Assembly (NCBI GenBank): GCA_964504055.1
Contig: CAZDCU010000010.1
Location: forward strand, 28,059 to 40,567
Direction: 5' to 3'
Length of the DNA stretch: 12,509 bases
Origin: an uncultured Methanomassiliicoccales archaeon
GTDB lineage: Archaea > Thermoplasmatota > Thermoplasmata > Methanomassiliicoccales > Methanomethylophilaceae
This document shows positions 1 to 12,509 of this stretch, piece by piece. Every line of letters begins with the position of its first letter. The first letter of the stretch is position 1. A program made the position numbers and the translations under genes. A model generated the notes under the pieces. That model was not told the origin of the DNA. It did no database searches and saw only the letters and a list, made by a program, of their open reading frames with translations.

Positions 1-1719
1 ATCTTCGTAATTACTTCCCGATTTCGCTGTCATCTTTATGCTGTACGTTCCGACATCGACGGGGGCATCATCCGTATAGTCCGAGCCGTTTTCGGAATAA
101 CTGATTGTAACCGACTTATTGATTGTTTCATACACACTGTCCTTTGAAAGAATGACAGATGATACAGGATGTTCGTTTCCGTCGTATGTTATTTCTCCGG
201 AGGGGCTTACATCGAAAGCACCGTCATCGCAGTTACTGAGTTTTATCATACTGACAGTATACATGAAACCTGTCAACACGGGATTTTCGATACTTGAATC
301 GGTAACCGTTACCTTCAGGTAATAATTTCCTGCGTGTGTCGGTTCTTCAGAACTGTATTCGCCTGTTTCGGCATTGGAATATGTGACAGCGTACTCTCCT
401 TCATATTCGGTGCGTTTGCCGTCGTCAAATACCACTCTCAATACATCGGATATTTTTTCTCCGTATGTTACGCAATGGCCGTTGGCAATATTCAGGCGGA
501 TTTTACTTTTTGCAATGGACCAGGTAATTTCTTTCGCACCCTTGGTACCGTCGGACCAGATGTAACCGTCTTTCAGGGTTGCGGTTGCAGTGTAATCGTC
601 TGCATCTGTGGCTGTATTTCCTGTGAGTGTGTATCCTTCGCCTTCTTCGACACCTGTCTGCTCGGAACAGTTGTATTTGAGTCCTGTTTTTGCAACAGGT
701 ATATCGACTCCCCATACTGCGTAGAGCGTAGTGTCCTCAGTTATCGATATGTCGAATGTTTTGATGATTTCGCCGTCGGCTGTAAGCGACCATCCCATGA
801 ATTTTGCGCCGTCAACAGTAAATCCGCAGTCGGGAAGAGTGTATTTGTCCATGACGGTGACGTCACTCATTGTGCCTTCGGCATTTTCATTATTTTTATC
901 GAAGGATACTTTGAAACAGGCGGCAGCCAATCCATCGACTGTTGTGATGGTTTTTCCGTTGTTTGCGAGGTATACAATCGAGTTAACGTCGGAGGATGCG
1001 ATGTAGCTTGAATTTTCAACAAATACAATCACACTGCTGTCTGTGAGATTGCTTTTGTCAATAACATTGTTGTTATTGATGATCAGATAATCTGTGTCGG
1101 TGTTCTTGATTATCGTGTACTTGGTGTTGTCATTATTGATAATATTGTAATTGACGTTGTTGCTGTCATAAGTAATCGTGTTGTTGACGGTGTTGATGTC
1201 GTTGATAATCGTATAATTGATGTTGACTGTATCTTTGATTATCTTGTTATCGTCATTATTGACGTTGATAATCAGGTTGTCTTTGTTATTGATAGTCAGA
1301 TTGGTGTAATTATCATTGATAATCTGTTTGATACTGTCAACCTCATCGTTATCCAATGCGGCGGCAGATGTATCATTAGACATCAGAAGAACGGCTGCTT
1401 CTTTGATTGTAATGTAAACAACCTTGTAACCGATATTCCATGTGATTTCTTTTGATTCCGTGGTGTTATCGGACCAAACATAACCTTCACTGAGGGTAAG
1501 TGTCGCTTTGTATGTTCCCGCATTTGCGGCAGTGTTGCCTGTTATTGTGTATCCCGTACCTTCCGGAACACCTGTTTTTACGGTTCCGTCGTAGACGAGA
1601 CCGGATACGGCCGCCGGTATCTCGACCGTATTATCTTCTGCGGATGAATTATCCGCACCAATTGCTGCAAATGCAGTCACTGCCAATGCCGTCACGATAA
1701 ATGCAACCATCAGCTTCAT
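1..1719 (-). CDS. Secreted adhesin-like cell-surface protein, N-terminal 573 aa; the C-terminus runs off the window start
   Basis: The gene is missing from the supplied track because it has no stop codon inside the window. I checked every minus-strand codon by hand: the frame is open from ATG 1719-1717 to position 1, with an in-frame TAA just upstream at 1743-1741. The N-terminus MKLMVAFIVTALAVTAFAAIGA looks like a signal peptide. It is followed by repeated modules of the form ..YDG/YN....G.EG.GYT.TGNTA....Y.AT.TL..GY.WSD....KEITW.I, an Asn/Ile-rich tract, an Flg_new-like module, and C-terminal ITYDGNEHP...VGTYSIKMTAKSGSNY modules (MBG/YDG-type Ig-like repeats). Confidence 0.8.
   Translation of the reverse strand, partial: MKLMVAFIVTALAVTAFAAIGADNSSAEDNTVEIPAAVSGLVYDGTVKTGVPEGTGYTITGNTAANAGTYKATLTLSEGYVWSDNTTESKEITWNIGYKVVYITIKEAAVLLMSNDTSAAALDNDEVDSIKQIINDNYTNLTINNKDNLIINVNNDDNKIIKDTVNINYTIINDINTVNNTITYDSNNVNYNIINNDNTKYTIIKNTDTDYLIINNNNVIDKSNLTDSSVIVFVENSSYIASSDVNSIVYLANNGKTITTVDGLAAACFKVSFDKNNENAEGTMSDVTVMDKYTLPDCGFTVDGAKFMGWSLTADGEIIKTFDISITEDTTLYAVWGVDIPVAKTGLKYNCSEQTGVEEGEGYTLTGNTATDADDYTATATLKDGYIWSDGTKGAKEITWSIAKSKIRLNIANGHCVTYGEKISDVLRVVFDDGKRTEYEGEYAVTYSNAETGEYSSEEPTHAGNYYLKVTVTDSSIENPVLTGFMYTVSMIKLSNCDDGAFDVSPSGEITYDGNEHPVSSVILSKDSVYETINKSVTISYSENGSDYTDDAPVDVGTYSIKMTAKSGSNYED
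514..699 (-). repeat. Internal domain repeat, copy B (62 aa: PVAKTGLKYNCSEQTGVEEGEGYTLTGNTATDADDYTATATLKDGYIWSDGTKGAKEITWSI)
   Basis: Hand alignment to copy A (1432-1617) gives 36 of 62 identical residues. The similarity is also visible at the nucleotide level, e.g. ggaccagatgtaacc versus ggaccaaacataacc. Confidence 0.75.
709..912 (-). other. Listeria-Bacteroides repeat (Flg_new / InlB B-repeat)-like module within the adhesin
   Basis: The encoded segment is KVSFDKNNENAEGTMSDVTVMDKYTLPDCGFTVDGAKFMGWSLTADGEIIKTFDISITEDTTLYAVWG. It matches the family hallmark from memory: F-D-.N......lP....GY.F.GW.......yd....i..d.tLYA.W. Confidence 0.6.
1048..1326 (-). repeat. Degenerate ~30-33 nt tandem repeat encoding an Asn/Ile/Asp/Thr-rich tract with 10-11 residue periodicity
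   Basis: The encoded tract is QIINDNYTNLT INNKDNL IINVNNDDNK IIKDTVNINYT IINDINTVNNT ITYDSNNVNYN IINNDNTKYT IIKNTDTDYL IINNNNVIDKSN. On the + strand this reads as recurring gat/att/gtt codon runs (..attattgat.., ..gttgataat..). Confidence 0.8.
1432..1617 (-). repeat. Internal domain repeat, copy A (62 aa: PAAVSGLVYDGTVKTGVPEGTGYTITGNTAANAGTYKATLTLSEGYVWSDNTTESKEITWNI)
   Basis: This is the paralogous module of copy B at 514-699, with about 58 percent identity by hand count. Confidence 0.75.
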
Positions 1720-1908
1720 TCCGTGTTCTGTTTTCAAGTCTTATCCCTCATGTCGGTAAATTCACTGCTGACTATACCGTCTGTATGTAGAGTGAAACTA
1801 TCCTTTGTATTTATGCTGTACCGAATCTGCAGCCAGACATACCGTGCGTCAAAAAAGTGCCTGTTCGGCAACTAATTAAAATACTTTGAAACTGTTCTCG
1901 GAATCACT

Positions 1909-4927: not shown

Positions 4928-6577
4928 ATGTATAGTTCCGGTAACAGCAATCAGCCGATCATCGTGCTCAAAGAGGGTACGGAGAGAAGCAAAGACAAAG
5001 AAGCACAATTCAACAACATCGCCGCAGCGAAAGCAGTGGCAGATTCCGTCAGGTCAACACTCGGACCGAAAGGAATGGATAAGATGTTGGTCGACTCCAT
5101 CGGTGATGTCACAGTCACAAACGACGGTGTCACAATTCTCAAAGAAATCGATGTTCAGCACCCCGCAGCCAAGATGGTTGTCGAAGTCGCAAAGACACAG
5201 GACACAGAGTGCGGAGACGGTACGACAACAGCTGTCGTCCTTGCAGGAGAACTCCTCAAGCAGTCCGAGTCGCTCATCGATTCGAACATCCACCCCACAG
5301 TCATCACCAACGGTTTCAAACTCGCAGCTGAGAAGGCAGTCGAAGTCCTCAACGACATCGCAGTTCCCTCCAACGACGACAAACTCCTGAAGAAGGTTGC
5401 AGAGACCGCAATGACCGGTAAATCCGTCGGCGGAGAGGGAGAGCACCTCGCAGACCTCATCGTTCAGGCAGCAAGGGATGTTCAGGAAGGAAACATTGTC
5501 GACACAACCAACATCAAGATTGAGAAGAAAGCGGGAGGAGTCATCAACGACACCTACCTCGTAAAAGGTCTCGTTATCGACAAGCAGAGGGTCCACCCCC
5601 GTATGCCTAAGGTCGTCAAGAACGCAAAGATCGCTCTCTTCACAACAGCTCTTGAGAACAAGAAGCCCGAAGTATCCGCAGAGATCAGCATCTCCGATCC
5701 GCTTTCGATGCAGTCATTCCTCAACGAGGAAGACTCCACACTCAAAGCAATCGTCGACAAGATTGTTTCGACAGGTGCAAATGTCGTCTTCTGCCAGAAA
5801 GGTGTCGACGACCTCGTACAGCACTACCTCGCAAAAGCAGGTGTTCTCTGCTTCAGGAGGCTCAAGGAATCCGATATCATCGCCATTTCCAAAGCAACAG
5901 GCGGTTCCCTCGTAGGAGAGCCCATGGAAATCCAGGCAAAAGATCTCGGTACAGCTGAGGAAGTTGCAGAGAAAGAAGTCGGACTCGAGTCCATGTGCTT
6001 CATCACCGGCTGCAAGAACCCCAAGGCAGTGTCCATCGTCATCCGCGGAGGAACAGAGCATGTTCTCGCAGAAGTCGAGAGGGCAATGGTCGACGCTATC
6101 CGTGTCGTCGGTGTCGCAATCGAGGACGGAAAAGTCGTTGCCGGTGCAGGTGCACCTGAGATTGAAACAGAACTCAGGCTTGCAGAGTACGCTTCATCCG
6201 TCGGAGGAAGAGAGCAGCTCGCAATCGAGGCATTCTCCAAGGCTCTGGAAATCATTCCCTGGACCATCGCGGAGAACGCAGGTATCGATTCGATCGATGC
6301 AATCATCAAACTCAAGACAGCACACGACAAGAAAAAGAAGAACGGAGCATACTTCGGTCTCGACCTCGATACAGGCGAGGCAGTCAACATGCTCGACCGC
6401 TGTGTCGTAGAGCCTCTCAGAGTAAAGGTGCAGGCAATCAACTCCGCTGCTGAAGTAGCGAACATGATCCTCAGGATCGACGATGTCATTGCATCCCGCA
6501 GGGCTCCCCCGATGAACCCCATGGCAGACCCCTCAATGGGCGGTCCCGGCATGAGCGGTGTCGGCGGAATGATGTAA
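4928..6577 (+). CDS. ths: Thermosome subunit (group II chaperonin, Cpn60/TCP-1 family), 549 aa
   Basis: Hallmark motifs are present: [51 protein letters not shown] and a C-terminal GGMM tail. Confidence 0.97.
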
Positions 6578-8205: not shown

Positions 8206-8384
8206 GGCCCATCCCCTTTCTGGAAGGTATATCCTCTATCCTTATATATCGATTTGTAGACCCAGGTACGAAATACTGTACTGTATTGGACTTTTCCATA
8301 GGTTTTTCTACGAATTCCGACAAAATAACAACATATAATTAGTTAAGTTGTCACCGATATTTTTCAATCTGTTCAATGACCAAG

Positions 8385-8392
8385 TTATAAAT
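8385..8392 (+). promoter_or_regulatory. TATA-box candidate (ttataaat) for the recombinase operon
   Basis: It is centred about 31 nt upstream of ATG 8420. It lies downstream of the track's TTG start at 8348, which argues against that start. Confidence 0.4.
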
Positions 8393-8419
8393 ATCGCATC
8401 ATTCGATATACTCTTCGGG

Positions 8420-9211
8420 ATGGATGCACGCAGTGTACGTGTTGCGCTCTACGCAAGGGTATCGACAGAGGAACAGGCAGTGGAAGGTTTCTCTTTGGAC
8501 GCACAGATGAAGCGTCTGAGGAAATACTGTAATTCCCAGGGCTGGACCGTTGCCGACGAATACCGTGAGGAAGGGCACTCCGGACGCGATGTGAAACGTC
8601 CTGAATATACGCGTATGATGGAAGAGAGCGACAAGTGGGATGTCGTTCTTGTTCTCAAGATGGACAGGATCCACCGTAACAGCGAGAACTTCACCAGAAT
8701 GATGAAGGATCTCAACGCTTCCGGCAAGGGATTCTGCTCTGTCATGGAACAATTCGACACGAACAATGCCATGGGCAGGTTCGTGATGGACCTCATACAG
8801 CGTATCGCACAACTTGAATCCGAACAAATAGGCGAGAGGGTGAAGTTAGGGATGGAACAGAAAGCGAGGACAAAGGGCGGTCTGCTCGGTTTCGGGCAGC
8901 CATACGGATATGACTACAGAGGAGGCACACTCCTTGTGAACGACGACGAAGTTTTCGTTGTCAGAGCCATATACAAACTCTACAACAAAGGAATCGCAAT
9001 GGACAAGATTGCGAGTTCGCTCAACGATGCGGATATTCCCGCCAAGAAAGGCGGCAGATGGAACAAGCAGAGTATTGCAAAGATTCTGCACAATCCGCTG
9101 TATGTCGGGTACACTAAATGGGGAGAAATCGTCAGAGAAGGGGAACACCCCGCAATCATCGATATGGACGATTACGTCTCAATCAACGGTCCCGTCAAGG
9201 TCAACACATGA
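8420..9211 (+). CDS. Serine recombinase, copy 1 (resolvase catalytic domain plus recombinase domain), 263 aa
   Basis: The nucleophile motif is VALYARVSTEEQ. The catalytic-domain DR..R motif is LVLKMDRIHRN. The E-helix is RIAQLESEQIGERVKLGMEQKA. The recombinase-domain block (PF07508-like) is YGYDY...AIYKLY..G.....IA..LN...IP...GG.W....I..IL.NP.Y.G. The start is at ATG 8420 (MDARSVRV..). Confidence 0.9.
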   Translation: MDARSVRVALYARVSTEEQAVEGFSLDAQMKRLRKYCNSQGWTVADEYREEGHSGRDVKRPEYTRMMEESDKWDVVLVLKMDRIHRNSENFTRMMKDLNASGKGFCSVMEQFDTNNAMGRFVMDLIQRIAQLESEQIGERVKLGMEQKARTKGGLLGFGQPYGYDYRGGTLLVNDDEVFVVRAIYKLYNKGIAMDKIASSLNDADIPAKKGGRWNKQSIAKILHNPLYVGYTKWGEIVREGEHPAIIDMDDYVSINGPVKVNT

Positions 9212-10065
9212 GCGAAAGGACCCGTGCAGCAGTATACGCACGTGTTTCGACGGATGAACAGGCTACGTTAGGTTACTCCTTGGATGCCCAATTGGAAATG
9301 TTAAGGGACTTCTGCGAAGTCTTCGACATGGAAATTGCGGGAGAATACATCGACGACGGTTATTCGGGAACGAATACCAGGAGACCTGCGTACCGTAAAA
9401 TGTTCTCTTCCGAAGAACGCACGAAATGGGATGCGCTTGTCGTAATCAAAATGGACAGGATTCACCGTAACAGCAAGAATTTCATGCTGATGATTGAAGA
9501 CCTGTCCAAACACAATCAGTCGTTTTTCTCCACTACGGAGAGAATCGACACGACAACCGCATTCGGAAGATTCGCAATGGATGTCATTCAGCGTATCGCT
9601 CAGCTCGAATCCGAACAGATCGGTGAAAGAACGAAATTCGGCATGGAGCAGAAAGCCGATCAATGCGACGGAATAATGGGGTTCCAGCCTCCGTTCGGAT
9701 ACGATGTTGCCGAAGGAAAACTGATTCCGAATGAGAACGAACAGAATGTTGTAAAATCAATCTTTGAGATGTATCTCTCGGGAATGACTCTCGACGACAT
9801 TGCCTGTAAACTGAATTCTTCGTTCATCCGTACCAAAAAAGGCAATCAGTGGAACAAATTCAACATCCGTAACATTCTCCACAACCCTGTGTATGCAGGA
9901 TTCATGCGCTGGGAAGATCATCTGATAGAACATGACGCACCGTGCCCGGTTACTGCCGAAGAATTCAATCAGGTGCAGCGGATGATGTCTGCAAAAACAA
10001 GAAGCTCTAAGAAAAAAGAACCTTTCATGCTCCAATGCCGTGACAGCTGCATTTCCGTATCCTGA
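9208..10065 (+). CDS. Serine recombinase, copy 2 (paralogue of copy 1), 285 aa
   Basis: Matching motifs are AAVYARVSTDEQ, VVIKMDRIHRN, RIAQLESEQIGERTKFGMEQKA, FGYDV and ILHNPVYAGFMRW. ATG 9208 overlaps the copy 1 stop codon (9209-9211) as ATGA. The track start at 9118 is an out-of-context extension inside copy 1. Confidence 0.9.
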   Translation: MSERTRAAVYARVSTDEQATLGYSLDAQLEMLRDFCEVFDMEIAGEYIDDGYSGTNTRRPAYRKMFSSEERTKWDALVVIKMDRIHRNSKNFMLMIEDLSKHNQSFFSTTERIDTTTAFGRFAMDVIQRIAQLESEQIGERTKFGMEQKADQCDGIMGFQPPFGYDVAEGKLIPNENEQNVVKSIFEMYLSGMTLDDIACKLNSSFIRTKKGNQWNKFNIRNILHNPVYAGFMRWEDHLIEHDAPCPVTAEEFNQVQRMMSAKTRSSKKKEPFMLQCRDSCISVS

Positions 10066-10101: not shown

Positions 10102-10212
10102 ATGTCCGATAAGAAGAGGAAGGAGCTCACGGTGAAAATTATCGCCGTAGCTATCGTAGTTATTTTCCTTGGAACCGCTCTCGTTGCAGGCGTAAGTGTC
10201 TTCATCAAATGA
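10102..10212 (+). CDS. Hypothetical 36-aa single-pass membrane peptide (MSDKKRKELTVKIIAVAIVVIFLGTALVAGVSVFIK)
   Basis: It has a Lys/Arg-rich N-terminus followed by a hydrophobic stretch of about 22 residues. A TATA-like tttttaaaa (10074-10082) is centred about 24 nt upstream of the ATG, which fits a leaderless mRNA. There is no homology evidence, and the ORF is too short for the track. Confidence 0.3.
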   Translation: MSDKKRKELTVKIIAVAIVVIFLGTALVAGVSVFIK

Positions 10213-10475: not shown

Positions 10476-12509
10476 ATGGACATAAAAGAATGGCTCGGTG
10501 AAGACAACACTCTCGGTATTGACATTTGGCAGAAGAAATACTGTTACGAGGGTGAGTCGTTCGATCACTGGCTTGACCGTATATCGGTAGGCGATGAGGA
10601 ACTGAAACAGCTAATCATCGACAAGAAATTCCTTTTCGGCGGAAGGATTCTCGCAAACAGAGGCCTTCACAAGACCGGACTGAAAATAACACTGTCCAAC
10701 TGTTATGTCGTAGCGCCTCCCGAAGATTCGATCGAATCGATCTTCGAGACTGCCGGTAAACTCGCAAGAACGTTCAGTTACGGCGGAGGAGTCGGTATCG
10801 ATATTTCGAAACTCGCACCCAGGGGAGCTAAAATCAACAACACCGCATCGGAAACTTCCGGGGCGGTATCGTTTACAGACCTTTTCTCTATGGTAACCGG
10901 TCTCATCGGTCAGCACGGAAGGAGAGGCGCACTTATGCTTACGATTTCATGCGACCACCCCGATCTTGAGGAGTTTATGTCCGTAAAGACGGATTTGAAC
11001 AGAGTCACCAAAGCAAACATGTCCATCCGTGTGTCGGATAAGTTCATGGAATCGGTCAGGGACAAGAAGAAGTACATTCAGATATTCGAGCGCCCCGAAA
11101 CCAACGATATCACAAGGAAAGAACTCGATTCGCACGAGTTCTTCAAGAAATTATGTTACAATAACTGGGATTACGGAGAACCCGGATGTCTCTTCTGGGA
11201 CAGAATCGAGACATGGAACCTTCTTTCCGAGTTCCCCGATTACCACTACGCAGGAACCAACCCCTGTGCCGAAGAACCTCTTCCCGCAGGAGGCAGCTGT
11301 CTTCTCGGAAGCATAAACTTATCCAATTTCGTGGACGAAGACGGCTACTTCGACGAAGAAGAATTCAGAAGATGTGTCGGAATCTGCGTAAGAGCACTCA
11401 ACGGCGTATTGGATGAGGGACTTCCCTTACACCCGCTCCCCGAACAGAGAGAATCGGTCCGTGACTGGAGACAGATCGGTCTCGGAATTATGGGTCTCGC
11501 AGATATGCTGATTAAAATGGAGCTTACCTACGGAAGCAAAGAAGCCATGGACTTCTGCGACAGACTCGGAGGAATCATGGCCGATGAAGCAATGAAAGCA
11601 TCAGCACTCCTCGCAAAGGAGAACGGCGCATTCCCCAAGTGCAACATCGATTACATCCTGGCTTCGCCGTATTTCATTCACAATGCTTCGGAAGAGACCA
11701 AAGAACTCGTTAAGAAATACGGTCTGAGGAACTCACAGTTGCTTACGATTGCACCTACGGGTACGCTTTCCACAATGCTCGGAATCTCCGGAGGTATCGA
11801 GCCTATTTTTGCCAATTATTACACAAGAAGGACAACATCCCTCTCGGATCATGATGAATATTACAAGGTGTACACACCTGTTGTCAAGGCGTACATGGAT
11901 AAACACGGCGTAACAGACGACCGTGATCTTCCCGGATTCTTCGTCACTGCGCAGAATCTGAATTATAAGCAGAGGCTTAACCTGCAGGGAACATGGCAGA
12001 TGCACATCGATGCTTCCATCAGTTCAACCGTGAACCTTCCGATGGAATTCCCCGAGGAAGATGTTTACGATCTCTACATGTACGCATGGCAGATCGGCTG
12101 TAAGGGTGTAACCGTCTTCAGGGACGGATGCAAACGTCTGGGAATCCTTACAACAAAAGAGGAAAAGAAGGAAGAACCTCAGCCTAAGAAGAAGGAAAAG
12201 AGGGGATTCGTCGAGAATGTTGAAGACGATGTCGTCGGAAAGAAGAGAAAACTCGTCACCGGCTGCGGAAGTCTTCACTGTACCGCATTCTTCGACCCTT
12301 CGGACGGTCAGCTGCTTGAAGTGTACCTTAACAAAGGATCCACCGGCGGATGTAACAACTTCATGATCGGTCTTTCGAGGATGATTTCACTCGCAACAAG
12401 AAGCGGATGTGAGATCAGTGCGATTGTCGATCAGCTCAAGAGCTGCGGTTCGTGTCCGTCGTTCGTTGTACGTACACACACTCAGCACGATACCAGCAAA
12501 GGTACCTGC
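10476..12509 (+). CDS. nrdJ: Class II adenosylcobalamin-dependent ribonucleotide reductase, N-terminal 678 aa; continues past the window end
   Basis: Hand translation gives MDIKEWLGEDNTLGIDIWQKKY.., LSNCYV, SYGGGVGIDIS, GTNPCAEEPLPAGGSCLLGSINL, IGLGIMGLAD, TIAPTGTLS and VSSTVNLP. These are followed by a Lys/Glu-rich linker and a TSCPD-like Cys-rich domain (VTGCGSLH..GGCNNF..LKSCGSCPS). The frame is open to position 12509. GGTG lies 5 nt upstream of the ATG, and ttaaatat (10438-10445) is a TATA candidate. Confidence 0.93.
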   Translation, partial: MDIKEWLGEDNTLGIDIWQKKYCYEGESFDHWLDRISVGDEELKQLIIDKKFLFGGRILANRGLHKTGLKITLSNCYVVAPPEDSIESIFETAGKLARTFSYGGGVGIDISKLAPRGAKINNTASETSGAVSFTDLFSMVTGLIGQHGRRGALMLTISCDHPDLEEFMSVKTDLNRVTKANMSIRVSDKFMESVRDKKKYIQIFERPETNDITRKELDSHEFFKKLCYNNWDYGEPGCLFWDRIETWNLLSEFPDYHYAGTNPCAEEPLPAGGSCLLGSINLSNFVDEDGYFDEEEFRRCVGICVRALNGVLDEGLPLHPLPEQRESVRDWRQIGLGIMGLADMLIKMELTYGSKEAMDFCDRLGGIMADEAMKASALLAKENGAFPKCNIDYILASPYFIHNASEETKELVKKYGLRNSQLLTIAPTGTLSTMLGISGGIEPIFANYYTRRTTSLSDHDEYYKVYTPVVKAYMDKHGVTDDRDLPGFFVTAQNLNYKQRLNLQGTWQMHIDASISSTVNLPMEFPEEDVYDLYMYAWQIGCKGVTVFRDGCKRLGILTTKEEKKEEPQPKKKEKRGFVENVEDDVVGKKRKLVTGCGSLHCTAFFDPSDGQLLEVYLNKGSTGGCNNFMIGLSRMISLATRSGCEISAIVDQLKSCGSCPSFVVRTHTQHDTSKGTC

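Follow-up and report, generated by a model that had tools for sequence, protein, structure and literature searches.

We describe a tandem pair of serine recombinase genes, here called A and B, in a 12,509-nucleotide stretch of DNA from an uncultured Methanomassiliicoccales archaeon of Methanomethylophilaceae type (contig CAZDCU010000010.1 of assembly GCA_964504055.1; the whole stretch is referred to as the window, and related loci by L numbers). The pair appears to be a core-genome, two-subunit serine recombinase lacking a zinc ribbon, and it has no previous description in the literature searched. We consider it highly probable that A and B are a host-owned, conserved pair whose products work together. 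The fuller reading, in which they constitute a domesticated two-subunit site-specific recombinase whose favoured role is resolution at a site beside their own promoter, is a tentative one that we place a little short of an even chance. The pair is defined by three features:

Positions 8420..9211, plus strand: gene A, encoding a 263-amino-acid serine recombinase (Pfam matches, AlphaFold model, own orthologue set, A clade).
Positions 9208..10065, plus strand: gene B, encoding a 285-amino-acid serine recombinase paralogue with a short basic C-terminal tail (Pfam matches, own orthologue set, B clade).
Positions 9208..9211, plus strand: the ATGA stop/start overlap of A and B, read straight from the sequence.

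An earlier note made from the sequence had reported the co-oriented genes and their overlap, and both are as it described, with the start ATG of B at 9208–9210 and the stop TGA of A at 9209–9211. The start of A at ATG 8420 is consistent with its homologues and with a 263-residue gene call on identical contigs. BLASTP aligned the two proteins with 122 of 249 residues identical (49%; expectation value, E, of 2e-91), and 85 of 152 aligned residues are identical in the catalytic domains, where the note had counted roughly 80 of 150 by hand. The near-identical nucleotide stretches that it pointed out lie within direct repeats shared by the two genes, one at 8621–8712/9412–9503 (72% identity) and one at 8754–8865/9545–9656 (75% identity). 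Upstream of the pair the window carries genes for a thermosome subunit, Nre, a HAD hydrolase and a diacylglycerol-kinase-like protein, and downstream that for a class II ribonucleotide reductase (nrdJ, from 10476). The nearest named relatives of both proteins come from Methanomethylophilaceae, metagenome-assembled genomes of Methanomassiliicoccales and Ca. Methanarcanum, and the setting of the locus is archaeal and chromosomal.

Two Pfam domains were found in both proteins. Resolvase (PF00239) matched A with E = 3.5e-36 and B with E = 7.2e-34, and Recombinase (PF07508) matched them with E = 1.3e-16 and 1e-19, respectively; no further Pfam domain, zinc-ribbon and HTH_7 included, scored above cut-off in either. 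The motifs YARVST and MDRIHRN are present in A and in B, from which the note had concluded that neither copy is decayed, and this holds more widely: the equivalents of gamma-delta resolvase Y6, R8, S10, D67, R68 and R71 are kept in all 61 archaeal family members examined. The E-helix motif QRIAQLESEQIGER, common to A and B, is identical in 43 of these 61 sequences; the recombinase domains of A and B have diverged, and the E-helix interface is identical. Members of the B clade additionally share a clade-specific two-residue insertion and a MASKxR-type tail.

An AlphaFold model of A, based on a 79-sequence alignment (mean predicted local distance difference test score 88.6), comprises the catalytic domain, a long E-helix (residues 117–151) and a compact recombinase domain that reaches the C-terminus. 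The best Foldseek matches of this model were the Bxb1, SPbeta, PhiC31 and TP901-1 integrases and the recombinase domain of a Listeria integrase (E = 1e-14 to 1e-10), and in each case it matched only the N-terminal half of integrase chains of 486–596 residues. The recombinase domain superposes on PDB entry 4KIS at 2.6 Å over 119 columns, and the best match by sequence in the PDB is TP901-1. Archaeal relatives in the genome scan measure 240–290 residues, the bacterial ones 460–700. The best-scoring NCBIfam models for A and B were CcrB, CcrA, CcrC and XisF, all far under cut-off and aligned over their first ~240 positions. Because A and B are half as long as the integrases, match only their N-terminal halves and end after the recombinase domain, we regard them as large-serine-type recombinases without the zinc-ribbon/coiled-coil module, which was either lost or never present. 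Integrases use this module for recognition of the att sites and for control of direction. Thus, A and B share the catalytic domain, E-helix and recombinase-domain fold of the large serine integrases of phages (Bxb1, PhiC31, TP901-1, SPbeta, the Listeria innocua prophage) but differ from them in size (263 and 285 residues, against 486–596 in the solved chains and ~450–700 in the class), in having no machinery for att discrimination or directionality and in having no phage context. They are likewise distinct from the TnpA proteins of the IS607 family, which have an N-terminal MerR-like helix-turn-helix and reside in insertion sequences, whereas the catalytic domain begins at residues 7–8 in A and B and their scores against that model are 46 and 38 bits for a cut-off of 110.

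Conservation of the pair was scored in contigs from one genome per species plus metagenome contigs. At every Methanomassiliicoccales locus recovered, with both Methanomethylophilaceae and Methanomassiliicoccaceae covered, a B-type gene comes directly after an A-type gene, and the two fall into separate A and B clades, a positive outcome of the test that the earlier note had set. In a neighbour-joining tree the first genes form one clade and the second genes another, and the two mirror each other, with the same Methanomassiliicoccaceae and Methanomethylophilaceae subclades in each. The orthologue sets (E ≤ 1e-5, clustered at 90% identity) comprise 3,198 clusters for A and 3,044 for B. Across 18 genomes, A–A and B–B identities correlate (r = 0.68) and the identity of A to B within a genome stays at 46–52%; the duplication therefore predates the split of the two families and was not followed by gene conversion. 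The A stop lies at most 48 nucleotides before the conserved Tyr codon of B in 15 of 18 related loci, a spacing that leaves room solely for overlapping or abutting starts.

Against L089, an 86%-identical relative, A has a ratio of nonsynonymous to synonymous substitution rates (dN/dS) of 0.07 and the thermosome gene one of 0.05. For B, dN is 0.17 and dS is saturated; B evolves about twice as fast as A, yet is intact. By these rates, both genes appear to be under strong purifying selection. A recent strain-specific duplication with a decaying copy, which the note had named as the outcome that would undo its idea, is rejected by the separate clades, the uniform A–B identity, the selection on both genes and the intact catalytic residues. 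Judged from sequence comparison, the pair is of ancient origin, has been passed down vertically, and is co-transcribed and, in most loci, coupled in translation. One locus shows an additional feature: at 10788–11984 of L012, a third, decayed N-terminal recombinase fragment, reading YIRTPP in place of the nucleophile motif, separates A from B and continues in frame into B, so that the two make up an open reading frame of 398 residues. A 393-residue database protein, P0228, may resemble this fusion.

The surroundings of the pair are equally conserved. The order Nre, radical SAM protein, thermosome, a variable segment of 0.2–4 kb and then A–B was found at 11 of the 16 pair-bearing loci of the genome scan, in both families, and the same three genes lie upstream in the metagenome-contig loci L089 and L092. 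Downstream, a 113-residue gene and a trypsin-like protease recur as anchors in Methanomethylophilaceae. Single-copy relatives in other Thermoplasmatota also neighbour core genes, including those for S8e, SRP19, proteasome alpha, TrkA, FttA, the RFC large subunit, Tyw1 and NOG1. Locus L014 (QMLL01000068.1) is labelled Deltaproteobacteria and carries a 61%-identical member of the archaeal family adjoining TrkA, as in Thermoplasmatota loci; its label is probably a binning error.

We next consider the DNA upstream of A, where two non-coding elements of the window are candidate cis elements of the operon:

Positions 8363..8384, plus strand: conserved non-coding block TTCAATCTGTTCAATGACCAAG, directly before the A/T-rich box and conserved in L089.
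Positions 8385..8393, plus strand: A/T-rich TATA-like box TTATAAATA of the A–B operon, conserved with L089.

Upstream of A, most pair loci carry 2–4 units of the 7-bp palindrome GTCWGAC with an 11-bp period, and these arrays sit right before an A/T-rich TATA-like box. Allowing at most one mismatch, GTCWGAC-N4-GTCWGAC occurs 12 times in 1.12 Mb, always 33–254 nucleotides upstream of a recombinase gene of the family. By a rough estimate that ignores base composition, fewer than 1 would be expected by chance; two of the loci concerned fall outside the pair-bearing group. A weight-matrix scan placed the strongest copy at a fixed distance of −80 to −100 from the Tyr codon, and the candidate binding site of L030 reads ACCGTCAGACAAAGGTCAGACAAT. 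In the window, the position that the GTCWGAC repeats hold in other loci is taken by the 8363–8384 block, which is the same in L089 except at 3 N positions, amid an otherwise diverged spacer. The window contains a single copy of the block, where 0.01 would be expected by chance, and each related locus likewise has just one, in every case upstream of A; an exact-pattern scan of metagenome contigs returned only promoter copies (L177, L178) and unrelated chance matches. The block is a candidate operator or recombinase-binding site, a putative clade-specific counterpart of GTCWGAC-N4-GTCWGAC to which A and B might bind.

Similar A/T-rich boxes lie ~25–30 nucleotides ahead of a conserved start region, GGGATGGATG, in most loci, and by analogy with the architecture of archaeal promoters the box at 8385–8393 is the putative promoter element of A–B. 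The start region, at 8417–8426 in the window, surrounds the start codon of A and is conserved in nucleotide sequence across orders, in most Thermoplasmatota loci, whereas the N-terminus that it encodes is not conserved; its spacing from the A/T-rich box hints that the transcript is leaderless or that the region is an element of the start site. Sister lineages have promoter-region elements of other kinds. A single-copy sister clade carries a perfect 26-bp (12-2-12) dyad, GTGGCTAACGGA-CT-ACCGTTAGCCAC, between the TATA-like box and the start codon (~4615–4640 in L032, with equivalent positions in L028 and L033), whose centre in L028 is AG, the reverse complement of CT, and whose size and symmetry match the classical dimer site of serine recombinases. 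Another clade has a conserved motif of its own. Their specificity and position suggest that the GTCWGAC repeats, the dyad and the 8363–8384 block may all be sites to which the recombinases bind themselves.

These elements bear on what the pair may do. We propose that the identical E-helices would bring A and B together as mixed dimers and as a synaptic A2B2 tetramer, in which each subunit would read a different half-site via its diverged recombinase domain. The proteins would bind the phased repeats at their own promoter and so regulate their own synthesis, and the promoter-proximal site would double as a recombination site at which chromosome multimers would be converted to monomers, as plasmid and transposon resolvases do. 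We favour a resolution role because the operon is preceded by phased sites overlapping its promoter, which is the layout of the Tn3/gamma-delta res site and of the Sin, beta recombinase and ParA (RK2) systems. In those systems, as proposed for A and B, repeated sites overlap the recombinase's own promoter, direct repeats are resolved and the recombinase regulates itself; those enzymes, however, are single, small (~180–200 residues), end in a helix-turn-helix and reside on plasmids or transposons, whereas A and B are two subunits with a PF07508 domain on a chromosome. In terms of res- or hix-type sites, the candidates are the phased GTCWGAC units in most relatives and the 26-bp dyad in the sister clade, with only the diverged block in the window. 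Resolution of chromosome multimers in particular, at a site akin to res or dif, strikes us as possible but on the doubtful side.

A functional precedent would be the Xer/dif systems (XerC/XerD, XerS-difSL, archaeal XerA), which are host-encoded, vertically inherited and devoted to housekeeping and, in XerC/XerD, form a heteromer of paralogues, all as proposed for A and B. The difSL site immediately adjoins the XerS gene. Xer proteins are nonetheless tyrosine recombinases, unrelated to A and B in fold and chemistry.

Several observations weigh against the proposed role. An A–B complex and any recombination product are predictions from sequence. The upstream repeats are direct, phased at 11 bp and fixed relative to the TATA-like box, and so look more like an operator than a crossover site. 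In the clade of the window, as in L010, L012, L015 and L023, they are missing or have diverged. A position-weight-matrix scan of 10 kb on each side of the pair found no strong second site except in L013, L038 and L015, and GC and AT skew over 8 kb on each side showed no consistent switch suggestive of a replication terminus. The second GTCWGAC clusters of L013 and L038 lie 130–165 bp upstream; in L015, a two-unit site of GTCWGAC type sits ~440 nucleotides downstream of B (5794–5817, minus strand), and the usual upstream site is missing. Moreover, we know of no serine-family chromosome dimer resolvase, and XerA, the normal dimer resolvase of archaea, occurs in other Thermoplasmata. Within ~10 kb on each side of the archaeal pairs we found no XerA-like gene, the sole three matches being in bacterial or viral loci, and a database search with Thermoplasma XerA, taken from PDB alignments, returned Thermoplasmatales-like proteins for all of its top 120 matches.

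The same features could be read as those of a DNA invertase for phase variation, in which A and B would invert distant segments between inverted sites, for instance promoters of surface-protein or glycan loci, and the promoter repeats would be purely autoregulatory. We think this unlikely, though it has points in its favour: the operator-like character of the upstream motif, the lack of a partner site within 10 kb, which would place the targets elsewhere, and the frequent association of the hosts with gut or rumen and their large secreted surface proteins, such as the one encoded at 1–1722 of the window (minus strand). The parallel would be Mpi, the master DNA invertase of Bacteroides, which is likewise a chromosomal serine recombinase serving its host. 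The NCBIfam similarity to Mpi is weak and far under cut-off (25 and 22 bits for A and B against 272), and Mpi, like known invertases generally, is a single small helix-turn-helix recombinase rather than a pair. Furthermore, inverted copies of any motif were not seen in the loci examined, and the family is equally conserved, in core-gene settings, in Thermoplasmatota of sediment and peat.

Whether A and B act jointly is a separate matter, to which the lineages outside the pair-bearing group contribute. There too, another recombinase-domain protein follows the single recombinase, suggesting that two-component arrangements are the norm. In L016, L018 and L022 this partner is a serine recombinase of divergent sequence, and in L020, L035, L036 and L062 it joins an HNH or HNH-like domain to a Recombinase (PF07508) domain. 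The HNH-type partners are located at 11443–12231 (minus strand) in L020, 5489–6100 in L062, 4553–5236 in L035 and 10829–11557 in L036; we know of no description of a fusion between an HNH-type zinc-finger nuclease and a Recombinase domain. We take A and B to act as one enzyme because both are always retained in a fixed order, share an identical interface helix, have diverged DNA-binding domains and are matched by second proteins elsewhere. The heteromeric recombinase suggested by the earlier note accordingly gains strong comparative support from conservation of the pair, with the heteromer itself still an inference.

The competing view is that A and B share no more than a transcript and work separately, as partly redundant recombinases, each forming a homodimer or homotetramer on a site of its own. 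It draws on the single-copy homologues of other Thermoplasmatota, which make a homomeric form viable, and on the perfectly symmetric 26-bp site of one single-copy clade. We nevertheless judge it quite improbable: both copies have been kept, often with overlapping start and stop, since before the two families split, their E-helix interface is the same, and the single copy elsewhere has its own recombinase-domain follower.

Nor do we find it likely that the pair is a mobile-element integration module, remnant or active, that inserts and excises cassettes beside itself in the manner of CcrAB. In support of such a module, the closest named families are Ccr and the XisF excisionases, and gene content varies both between the thermosome gene and A, from 0.2 to ~4 kb, and downstream of B, with defence-like genes in L092. 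The pair itself is immobile, however: its position and orientation do not change between the two families, it diverges in step with the host, and it has no zinc-ribbon/coiled-coil module with which to discriminate att sites. A tRNA gene was looked for at the locus and not found, no convincing flanking repeats surround the pair, and no presence/absence polymorphism was seen among the loci compared, so that the excision or integration of a small element, one of the functions first suggested, finds no backing here. A 20-nucleotide inverted repeat (8401–8420/10718–10737), with arms that are 85% complementary, flanks the pair together with the start of nrdJ; it is probably due to chance, since one arm falls in conserved nrdJ coding sequence and L089 does not conserve the other.

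Relatives in virus and plasmid collections are all bacterial and at most ~42% identical (in INPHARED and PLSDB, which hold phage and plasmid records, at most ~40% and to Bacillota integrases). The one IMG/VR match above 45% identity (57%) is L094, a 4.9-kb record (IMGVR_UViG_3300031999_005602) with an A–B pair followed by proline dehydrogenase, as in Methanomassiliicoccaceae L023, L026, L029 and L039. It is probably misfiled as viral, since this A–B and Pro_dh synteny is chromosomal. With housekeeping neighbours in conserved order and only these distant bacterial relatives, a prophage, plasmid or other integrated element, the conventional explanation that the note had kept in view, is rejected; unlike integrases at the edges of mobile elements, A and B belong to the core-gene synteny of two families. 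A defence system is rejected as well, as a PADLOC search of the locus gave no match.

The analogy to CcrA/CcrB of staphylococcal SCCmec, drawn in the earlier note, holds only in that there are two adjacent paralogues. Those recombinases, too, are a co-oriented pair from the large-serine-recombinase lineage, and both are believed to be required. A and B differ from them in being half-size, devoid of the zinc-ribbon/coiled-coil module, archaeal, vertically inherited and embedded in core synteny, and they score far under the Ccr cut-offs (152 and 146 bits against 900 for CcrB; 104 and 119 bits against 700 for CcrA), with only the N-terminal ~240 of the 442–558 residues of the Ccr models aligning. 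In contrast to SCC, the A–B locus has neither element boundaries nor repeats and keeps a fixed position.

Finally, non-recombining DNA-binding regulators acting at GTCWGAC-type operators would fit the motif adjoining the TATA-like box, but we regard this as very improbable, as all 61 sequences keep the nucleophilic Ser and every catalytic Arg and Asp while overall identity is ~50%, which is hard to explain without catalysis.

Two further genes of the window deserve mention, one of which may be a third gene of the A–B operon:

Positions 10102..10212, plus strand: a lysine-rich, 36-amino-acid open reading frame with a single membrane pass, 36 nucleotides past B and supported by the gene call on identical contigs.

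A Pfam search with this small protein gave no match, and small lysine-rich transmembrane reading frames likewise follow B in L089, L009, L012, L013 and L030. The gene at 1–1722 (minus strand) encodes a large secreted protein of more than 574 residues that runs past the left end of the window and begins with the signal peptide MKLMVAFIVTALAVTAFAAIGA; no Pfam family matched it, and it is probably a surface or adhesin-like protein.

Nearly all of the archaeal site-specific recombinases whose function has been studied are tyrosine enzymes. A 2021 review of the archaeal tyrosine recombinases remarks that archaeal serine recombinases have been seen in transposons and "were never fully investigated", and our search of a collection of PubMed Central and bioRxiv papers found none describing this pair. 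The pair belongs to a large family, in which half-size recombinases of the large-serine type are fixed as a two-gene unit in a methanogen order that includes species of the human gut and the rumen. If A and B do form a heteromer, they would amount to a minimal serine recombinase of natural origin, able to read asymmetric sites with no zinc-ribbon/coiled-coil module, and this would bear on the control of directionality and on tools for genome engineering.

At its boldest, the proposal would make the pair the first housekeeping serine recombinase of a cellular chromosome, an A2B2 enzyme that would resolve multimers at a res-like site beside its own operon through resolvase-style architecture and with no FtsK-type motor, complementing or replacing XerA in Methanomassiliicoccales and related Thermoplasmatota, with the HNH partners as alternative subunits; in this full form we consider it unlikely. 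To our knowledge, archaea lack FtsK, and if a role in chromosome maintenance is true, the pair would bear on how archaea without this motor bias recombination towards resolution.

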